This document shows positions 37,838-37,908 of a stretch of DNA of 64,000 nt, piece after piece. The stretch covers positions 32,182 to 96,181 of the IMG/VR virus record IMGVR_UViG_3300045988_047044; one strand, 5' to 3'. Both the position numbers and the translations under genes were made by a program. This DNA comes from a virus. Below the pieces are notes generated by a model. The model was given only the letters and a program-made list of their open reading frames with translations, was not told the origin of the DNA and did no database searches. Positions within the stretch are counted from its first letter, which is position 1. Each line of letters starts with the position of its first letter.

Positions 37838-37908
37838 GCCCCATGTTGGACTCGAACCAACGCCATACAAGTTTAGAATTTGCTCTTCTACCACTGAAGT
37901 AATGGGGC
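37838..37908 (-). tRNA. tRNA-Sup(CTA): suppressor tRNA (anticodon CTA, reads UAG amber)
   Basis: Canonical cloverleaf GCCCCAT-TA-CTTC-AGTGGTA-GAAG-A-GCAAA-TTCTAAA-CTTGT-ATGGC-GTTGG-TTCGAGT-CCAAC-ATGGGGC-A. The anticodon loop TTCTAAA places CTA at positions 34-36; there is a single A-C at the 31-39 pair. Confidence 0.55.

Follow-up and report, generated by a model that had tools for sequence, protein, structure and literature searches.

A 64,000-nucleotide stretch of the viral record IMGVR_UViG_3300045988_047044 (positions 32,182 to 96,181 of that record; referred to here, at its full length, as the window) carries on its minus strand a tRNA gene whose CUA anticodon is complementary to the amber stop codon UAG. 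No phage gene needs TAG read-through, and the genome uses the standard code. We consider it most probable, at roughly 0.6, that the gene encodes a functional, selectively maintained tRNA of a standard-code phage of the Zeta crAss-like group with Bacteroides-type hosts, and that this tRNA acts on termination at UAG during infection. Zeta crAss-like phages rank among the most abundant human gut viruses, and one species cluster accounts for 8% of crAss-like reads (PMC7886860). A stop-reading tRNA that the phage's own genes do not need raises the prospect that suppression may serve host takeover, counter-defence or regulation, and not code switching.

The CUA tRNA gene and its conservation

The gene spans 37837-37908 on the minus strand, is 72 nucleotides long and was identified by ARAGORN, by Rfam and by direct reading. 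ARAGORN, the check that an earlier note on this DNA had proposed, called a tRNA with a cta anticodon at 37836-37908 (minus strand), and the Rfam tRNA model RF00005 matched 37837-37908 over its full length (positions 1 to 71 of the 71 in the model), scoring 62.7 bits where the gathering threshold is 29 (E=3e-11). Read along the minus strand, the molecule is a canonical class-I cloverleaf: the acceptor stem GCCCCAU/AUGGGGC is followed by the linker UA, the D stem CUUC/GAAG encloses the loop AGUGGUA with G18G19, a single A leads into the anticodon stem GCAAA/CUUGU, and the variable loop AUGGC precedes the T stem GUUGG/CCAAC with its canonical loop UUCGAGU. The anticodon stem contains a G.U pair at 27:43 and an A.C mismatch at 31:39. 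The discriminator base is A73, and the terminal CCA is not encoded. The anticodon itself, C34-U35-A36, lies at 37874-37876 in the seven-nucleotide loop UUCUAAA with U33, A37 and A38; by sequence, the CUA at 34-36, the loop length, U33 and the purine at 37 place the molecule among amber-suppressor tRNAs. The D-arm, T-arm and acceptor described in the earlier note, as well as its placement of CTA at 34-36, are all present in this reading. The span it gave, 37838-37908, marks the right element and misses only the discriminator A at 37837, with the strand left unstated.

The conservation of the gene was assessed in arrays collected independently of its sequence. Sixteen strain arrays were retrieved via a neighbouring 564-residue protein, and the CUA tRNA is identical over all 72 nucleotides in every one of them (16/16). 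More distant arrays were reached through homologues of the same protein, and three of them (L503, L504 and L506) carry an orthologue in the same slot, after Tyr-Gly. The 564-residue proteins of these three relatives are 83%, 68% and 45% identical to that of the window, and their CUA tRNAs 97%, 77% and 84%. All four aligned sequences share the loop UUCUAAA, the most conserved part of the molecule, and the G27.U43 pair is likewise invariant. The stems are preserved through compensatory change: 95.2% of stem cells are paired and 8 of the 21 pairs have changed on both sides. In the corresponding control, slid registers were only 31-51% paired and none of 500 shuffles reached the observed value, in what is a small sample of four sequences.

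This constancy is found among neighbours that change rapidly. Between 28.6 and 40.1 kb, strain differences relative to L223-L238 amount to 4-21% mismatches in tRNA genes and 1-7% in the surrounding DNA. The gene adjoining the suppressor, tRNA-Met(CAU) copy 3 (37765-37833, or 37763-37834 in the strain comparison, minus strand; called by ARAGORN and Rfam), is hypervariable between strains: three or more alleles occur, very unlike one another yet all with the loop CUCAUAA, while the suppressor beside them is identical. The compensatory changes, together with invariance among hypervariable neighbours, show that the CUA tRNA is old and under purifying selection. Its lineage is also separate from the Gln-derived suppressors of other phages. 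One such gene was found in array L507, which carries another CUA tRNA, at another site, that derives from tRNA-Gln (76% identity to the tRNA-Gln of the window, with an identical T-arm). Arrays L505 and L508 contain no CUA tRNA.

The body of the molecule speaks against several amino-acid identities. Because it is class I, it is not the body of a bacterial Ser, Leu or Tyr tRNA. It has the pairs G1-C72, C2-G71 and C3-G70 with A73, shares no more than 70% identity with any of the arrays' canonical tRNAs, and is not Gln-like. Lysine may be conjectured from two weak hints. A blastn search with the CUA tRNA alone found only a weak similarity (78.6%, E=4e-3), the matching genes being tRNA-Lys genes from Streptomyces phages. 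In addition, the gene L506:15292-15597, a homologue of the window open reading frame (ORF) 38263-38562, contains a single in-frame TAG aligned to Lys58, where its homologues have Lys (AAA or AAG) with good similarity on both sides. This is the only convincing in-frame TAG in a phage carrying the same tRNA type. Under the identity rules of E. coli, U35 together with A73 would also suit lysyl-tRNA synthetase.

Phage family and use of TAG

The genome beyond the window was rebuilt from related IMG/VR, ENA and Logan contigs and then from GenBank MT835470.1, an unannotated 117,447-bp 'Bacteriophage sp.' entry of the same species (95-99.5% nucleotide identity). The composite consists of the window, MT835470.1 for everything outside it, and contig L019 filling a 9-kb gap; it measures ~185.2 kb (about 185,181 bp), and the contigs of relatives measure 175-191 kb. 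One flank encodes a primase, NrdD, a Dda-like helicase, DNA ligase, RNA ligase, a CCA-adding enzyme, a polynucleotide kinase/phosphatase, a family-A DNA polymerase (DNA_pol_A, PF00476) and thymidylate synthase. The other flank encodes the large terminase subunit (TerL), the portal, tail-fibre-like proteins, the major capsid protein and a series of proteins of 1000-3250 residues. The enzymes of tRNA maturation and repair, namely the CCA-adding enzyme (PF01743), the polynucleotide kinase/phosphatase and the RNA ligase (L107:12341-13132, L107:13757-14683 and L042:18984-20369), sit about 16-24 kb before the start of the window, and such a kit suits tRNA genes in which CCA is not encoded.

Several features identify the phage as crAss-like. 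The capsid protein matches PF23898 (Crass_capsid, 51.9 bits), a 1610-residue protein matches the Crassvirus muzzle family PF25731 (crAss_MUZ, 112.6 bits), and CrAss_Ring_1 was found in a relative. After near-identical, unannotated Zeta-like records, the best matches of TerL are crAss-like phages at 26-30% identity. A Shine-Dalgarno core precedes only 3 of 61 start codons, the pattern expected for Bacteroidota. These matches, the relatives of TerL and the missing Shine-Dalgarno motifs bear out the earlier attribution to a crAss-like, Bacteroidota-type phage.

The Zeta group defined by Yutin et al. (2021) has genomes of 145-192 kb with many tRNAs, introns and homing endonucleases (PMC7886860). 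The composite shows the structural module of this group (major capsid protein, muzzle and crAss-related TerL) and its genome traits, with a size inside the 145-192 kb range, a tRNA block, polA, homing endonucleases and split genes. Homing-endonuclease ORFs and split genes are numerous, and examples lie in the window at 26430-27179 (minus strand) and at L239:19306-19851, MT835470.1 42003-42719 and L509:11465-12541. The 3254-residue giant gene of one strain corresponds in MT835470.1 to 2281 and 991 residues around a 238-residue ORF. A megablast search of the array region against deposited phages gave short tRNA matches only and no close relative. The phage is very common in gut metagenomes, one exact 230-residue protein being indexed in 14,233 assembly-collection blocks. 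A 175-residue enzyme that has cellular homologues gave no host information, its best match being at most 51% identical and no phage copy appearing when it was compared with the genome contigs.

The long ORFs of the window are intact under the standard code, as the earlier note had stated, and no real genes are joined there when TAG is read as sense. The note had also proposed that any TAG-recoded genes would be late genes outside the window, and this the composite did not support. TerL, portal, capsid, muzzle and tail fibres each form one standard-code ORF, and the giant late proteins (1166, 1529-1612, 2281 and 3254 residues) are equally uninterrupted. A scan of the composite found no gene interrupted only by in-frame TAG; the anticodon call nevertheless stands. 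The signs of code 15 are absent: conserved genes contain no in-frame TAG, no fragmentation is repaired by reading TAG as sense, and the only ORF pairs merged in this way are spurious or independently startable. The late regions of two relatives, seen in contig 044054 (for L504, via L168/L213) and in a 191,095-bp contig (for L506, via L509), are likewise without in-frame TAG. Since the phage genes contain no in-frame TAG, the CUA tRNA is not needed to decode them. For annotation, table 11 is the right choice for translating such genomes even though they encode a suppressor tRNA.

TAG is nonetheless used as a stop codon. A simple gene set drawn from the composite, with a minimum ORF length of 60 residues, has 220 members, of which 144 end in TAA, 54 in TGA and 22 in TAG (~10%). 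The late block (39 genes, 23,455 codons) has 34 TAA stops, five TGA stops and no TAG, so that every TAG stop falls outside it. No excess of in-frame TAGs or of structure was found downstream of the TAG stops, where the extensions enter tRNA genes or non-coding DNA. One exception is the 998-residue glucosaminidase-domain gene 57835-60831, whose TAG stop is followed by five in-frame TAGs within 22 codons (57748-57837, minus strand) before the first TGA, a pattern not seen after the other TAG-ended genes.

Two pairs of ORFs joined by a TAG were considered as read-through fusions and rejected. At 61073-62011 (minus strand), ORFs of 93 and 180 codons meet in frame at the junction TAGCAAGTATTTAAAATG, which is conserved across strains. 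The downstream ORF has its own ATG 12 nucleotides after the TAG, and in L150, L170 and L171 its main body is out of the frame of the upstream ORF. The second pair consists of a homing-endonuclease-like ORF and a gene with an ATG three codons past the TAG.

Recoding of another stop codon was detected in relatives at ~40-60% protein identity (L177, L178, L185, L219, L220 and L090). Here TerL, portal and neighbouring genes contain many in-frame TGA codons aligned to Trp, at a TerL identity of ~60%, which fits the published opal-recoded Zeta phages. Two further apparent signs of recoding were discarded: the in-frame TGAs of contig 044054 belong to antisense ORFs that are not real, and among the shortened homologues of the major capsid protein (398-422 residues) the cause in L509 is an intron with a NUMOD homing endonuclease and no TAG.

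Proposed role and alternatives

The earlier note had offered, as a fallback, that the tRNA manipulates host termination, and this is now the leading hypothesis. The CUA tRNA would be transcribed together with neighbouring tRNAs, trimmed and supplied with CCA with the help of the phage CCA-adding enzyme, polynucleotide kinase and RNA ligase, and charged by a host aminoacyl-tRNA synthetase. During infection it would then vie with release factor 1 for UAG codons. Its targets would be UAG termination in host mRNAs and in a minority of early and middle phage genes, and the benefit to the phage would lie in host takeover or counter-defence rather than in a late-gene code switch.

A more specific version of this proposal can be put forward tentatively and with clearly less confidence. 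UAG suppression itself might be a weapon or timer that extends or derails UAG-ending host proteins, possibly defence proteins, and might be the reason for the long retention of the CUA tRNA in several standard-code Zeta lineages. The late, highly expressed phage genes would be shielded by never being TAG-ended. The agent would be a dedicated non-Gln, possibly Lys-inserting lineage with a conserved unpaired 31:39. If so, it would represent host takeover via translation termination, separate from genetic-code switching.

Several observations weigh against an active suppressor. No orthologue pairs positions 31:39, which read A.C or C.C, an unusual state in a decoding tRNA. Minimum-free-energy folding does not yield the cloverleaf, which lies 1-2.3 kcal/mol higher in each orthologue; the competing minimum-energy fold varies among the orthologues, and the cloverleaf is common to all of them. 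The lack of TAG in the late block would fit late translation in the presence of the suppressor, but a general preference for TAA explains it about equally well, as TGA is also depleted there. Finally, the TAG-ended genes have no close back-up stop, with a median of 21 codons to the next TAA or TGA. Given ~10% TAG stops and no back-up, an efficient suppressor would extend ~22 phage proteins.

Among the other explanations, the one that survives best, while still unlikely, is an incipient or relic code change, in which the tRNA would be either an early stage of TAG reassignment or a remnant of a TAG-recoded ancestor and would now only tolerate occasional nonsense TAGs. Within the Zeta group, standard-code, TAG-recoded and TGA-recoded lineages lie a short distance apart (PMC7886860; PMC12386605), the TGA-to-Trp recoding described above occurs in relatives at ~60% TerL identity, and Borges et al. 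propose that a suppressor is acquired before recoding. The single in-frame TAG of L506:15292-15597, aligned to Lys58 in an otherwise well-conserved 100-residue gene by the tRNA, would be of the kind expected. Against a transitional state, the same tRNA has been kept, with compensatory changes, down to 45% identity of the neighbouring protein, the late genes of those lineages are without in-frame TAG, and TAG is not depleted as a stop (10%). The same argument was made by Babkin et al. (PMC12386605).

Somewhat less likely still is programmed read-through, in which the tRNA would serve as a regulatory device, either yielding C-terminally extended or fused products from some of the 22 TAG-ended early and middle genes or gating a TAG-interrupted gene. 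The confinement of TAG stops to regions outside the late block, the strain-conserved junction at 61073-62011 and the position of the L506 gene with its in-frame TAG next to the tRNA would all suit such a role. The details of the joined pairs argue otherwise: the downstream ORF at 61073-62011 has its own start and differs in frame in three strains, the other pair joins a homing-endonuclease-like ORF to an independently started gene, and the post-TAG extensions carry no excess of structure or TAGs.

It is improbable that the molecule is not a decoder at all and acts instead as a decoy for host anticodon nucleases, as a regulatory RNA, or as a tRNA with a modified C34 that does not read UAG. That no phage gene needs it, that the 31:39 mismatch is conserved, and that the array contains other odd tRNA-like genes and fast-evolving tRNA alleles suggestive of a tRNA arms race are consistent with this possibility. 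The loop with its standard U33, purine at 37 and A38 is, against this, the most conserved part of the molecule, and G18G19 and the T-loop are canonical. The host, moreover, has no CUA tRNA that a nuclease could attack.

Use of code 15 (TAG read as Gln) in late structural or lysis genes outside the window, decoded by the CUA tRNA, is highly improbable. Precedents exist in crAss-like, Lak and other gut phages, some Zeta phages with a CTA suppressor are amber-recoded, and L507 has a tRNA-Gln-like CUA tRNA that arose separately. In its published analysis the clade shows no suppression (PMC12386605). The idea is already contradicted by the uninterrupted TerL, portal, capsid, muzzle, tail-fibre and giant proteins, and TAG as sense joins no ORFs supported by homology.

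A pyrrolysine tRNA has a three-nucleotide variable loop, a small D-loop without GG, one linker base between acceptor and D stems and a six-pair anticodon stem, and that identity can be dismissed here: it rests on the CUA anticodon and on the 'Pyl' label that ARAGORN assigns by default to that anticodon, whereas the molecule has a five-nucleotide variable loop, a normal D-loop AGUGGUA with G18G19, the canonical T-loop UUCGAGU, two bases between acceptor and D stems and at most five anticodon-stem pairs, and Pyl-related families came up in none of the protein scans run.

The tRNA block and comparison with known systems

The suppressor lies, as the earlier note had it, in a tRNA array. The block comprises ~29 tRNA genes with small ORFs interspersed, all on the minus strand between 11044 and 45336 (ARAGORN, Rfam). 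Of the 30 calls that ARAGORN made in the window, one is an overlapping call on the plus strand, and Rfam reported 27 at the gathering score. These are all the tRNAs detected in the part of the genome covered by the window and MT835470.1, the other 117 kb in MT835470.1 having none. tRNA-Met(CAU) copy 3 begins three nucleotides downstream of the discriminator base of the suppressor; given this spacing, the two are likely to be co-transcribed as a single dimeric precursor.

Other members of the block are also unusual. The Pro, Ile, Lys, Tyr, Ala and Asn tRNA genes are highly variable or absent in some strains, and the hypervariability of the tRNA genes may reflect an exchange of cassettes or an arms race over tRNA bodies. 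A 'tRNA-Leu(CAA)' upstream of the Tyr gene (39988-40062, minus strand) has a class-I body without the long variable arm and a pyrimidine at 37. The anticodon loops of its orthologues (at about L503:7415, L504:11876, L505:13163 and L506:13033) include TGA, a six-nucleotide loop and the eight-nucleotide loops 'ttag' and 'taaa', so that the anticodon is changeable. The tRNA-Thr(UGU) gene at 28617-28700 (minus strand) is 84 nucleotides long, its extended variable arm being atypical of Thr. The overlapping call, an ARAGORN tRNA-Arg(TCG) at 30819-30895 on the plus strand, faces a minus-strand tRNA-Ser(GCU), falls below the Rfam gathering score and is probably a mirror-image artefact.

Several other elements accompany the block. 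A RAGATH-34 RNA at 42191-42297 (minus strand; Rfam, 123 bits) lies directly upstream of the gene for the 564-residue protein (40226-41920, minus strand), whose homologues carry DUF7788 and DUF2828 (PHROG 'RNA-binding protein'), and the pair is conserved beside the tRNAs. The conserved 100-residue ORF at 38263-38562 (minus strand) is located ~350 nucleotides upstream of the suppressor. An assignment of this ORF as a PTH2-like peptidyl-tRNA hydrolase was dropped, as sequence searches of Pfam and the PDB were empty and PHROG gave only 'hydrolase' (7e-7); its single-sequence AlphaFold model is poor, with a predicted local distance difference test score of 59.6. At 25358-26425 (minus strand), an adenylosuccinate-synthetase homologue matches phrog_1211 (PurZ-type '2-aminooxy adenylosuccinate synthetase', 7.7e-45) and Pfam Adenylsucc_synt, and may, judging from these matches, take part in 2-aminoadenine (Z-base) DNA chemistry. 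The TAG stop of this gene leads directly into tRNA-Gln. Outside the array, a block of small plus-strand ORFs at ~52000-56400 lies between minus-strand modules and has a lower GC content (33.6%) with inverted GC and AT skew; its content includes a FeThRed_B-like 65-residue ORF seen in L023.

A CTA suppressor without suppression is already known for what appears to be the same clade (PMC12386605, PMC7886860). In clade 8 of the Zeta group, as described by Babkin et al. (2025), all but one of 12 genomes carry tRNA-Sup-CTA and 'there is no suppression'; these phages have Bacteroides hosts, polA, genomes of 164-188 kb, 20-29 tRNAs and a GC content of 35.4-36.9% (PMC12386605). The present phage is similar in its size (~185 kb), polA (PF00476), ~29 tRNAs in one block, GC content of ~36-38%, Bacteroides-type translation signals, crAss capsid and muzzle genes and CTA suppressor without amber suppression. 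It fits this clade by shared traits rather than by a tree, the likeness involving no sequence comparison with the genomes of that paper (ct3H02, OGOT01000012 and others). Babkin et al. propose an anti-host role in which the suppressor impairs the production of host proteins, possibly defence proteins (PMC12386605). Yutin et al. (2021) had noted the mismatch between suppressors and recoding in Zeta and proposed read-through of host stop codons as counter-defence (PMC7886860). Lera and ctE7s22 differ in that their TAG stops are rare and soon followed by a second stop, whereas here TAG ends 10% of genes with no near back-up.

With the TAG-recoded gut phages (crAss-like Beta, Delta and Zeta, Lak and others; Yutin 2021, Borges 2021/2022, Peters 2022) the window shares a phage-encoded CUA tRNA, placed among early or standard-code genes, and standard-code Bacteroidota hosts. 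It departs from them in its late genes, which in those phages contain in-frame TAG read as Gln and here contain none, and in a body that is not Gln-like. The resemblance to the E. coli suppressors supD, supE and supF extends to the CUA anticodon, the A37 A38 context and the expected competition with release factor 1 at UAG. Those are mutant cellular tRNAs with a known residue, whereas here the phage has a dedicated gene for which no parent isoacceptor is evident.

The closest parallels for a suppressor without detectable reassignment, in a clade with recoded members, are the TGA suppressor of an Agate phage (Borges et al., Fig. 3A) and the TTA suppressor of an alpha-group crAss phage (Yutin 2021). 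In the former case, Borges et al. reported that a standard-code close relative of recoded Agate phages had acquired a suppressor tRNA. Both cases look recent, involving a single point mutation or a single genome, whereas the gene described here is old and conserved in divergent lineages, with compensatory stem changes. What the present analysis adds to the published picture is this age and purifying selection, a lineage that stands apart from the Gln-derived phage suppressors, and the continued use of TAG as a stop in ~10% of genes, all of them outside the late block.

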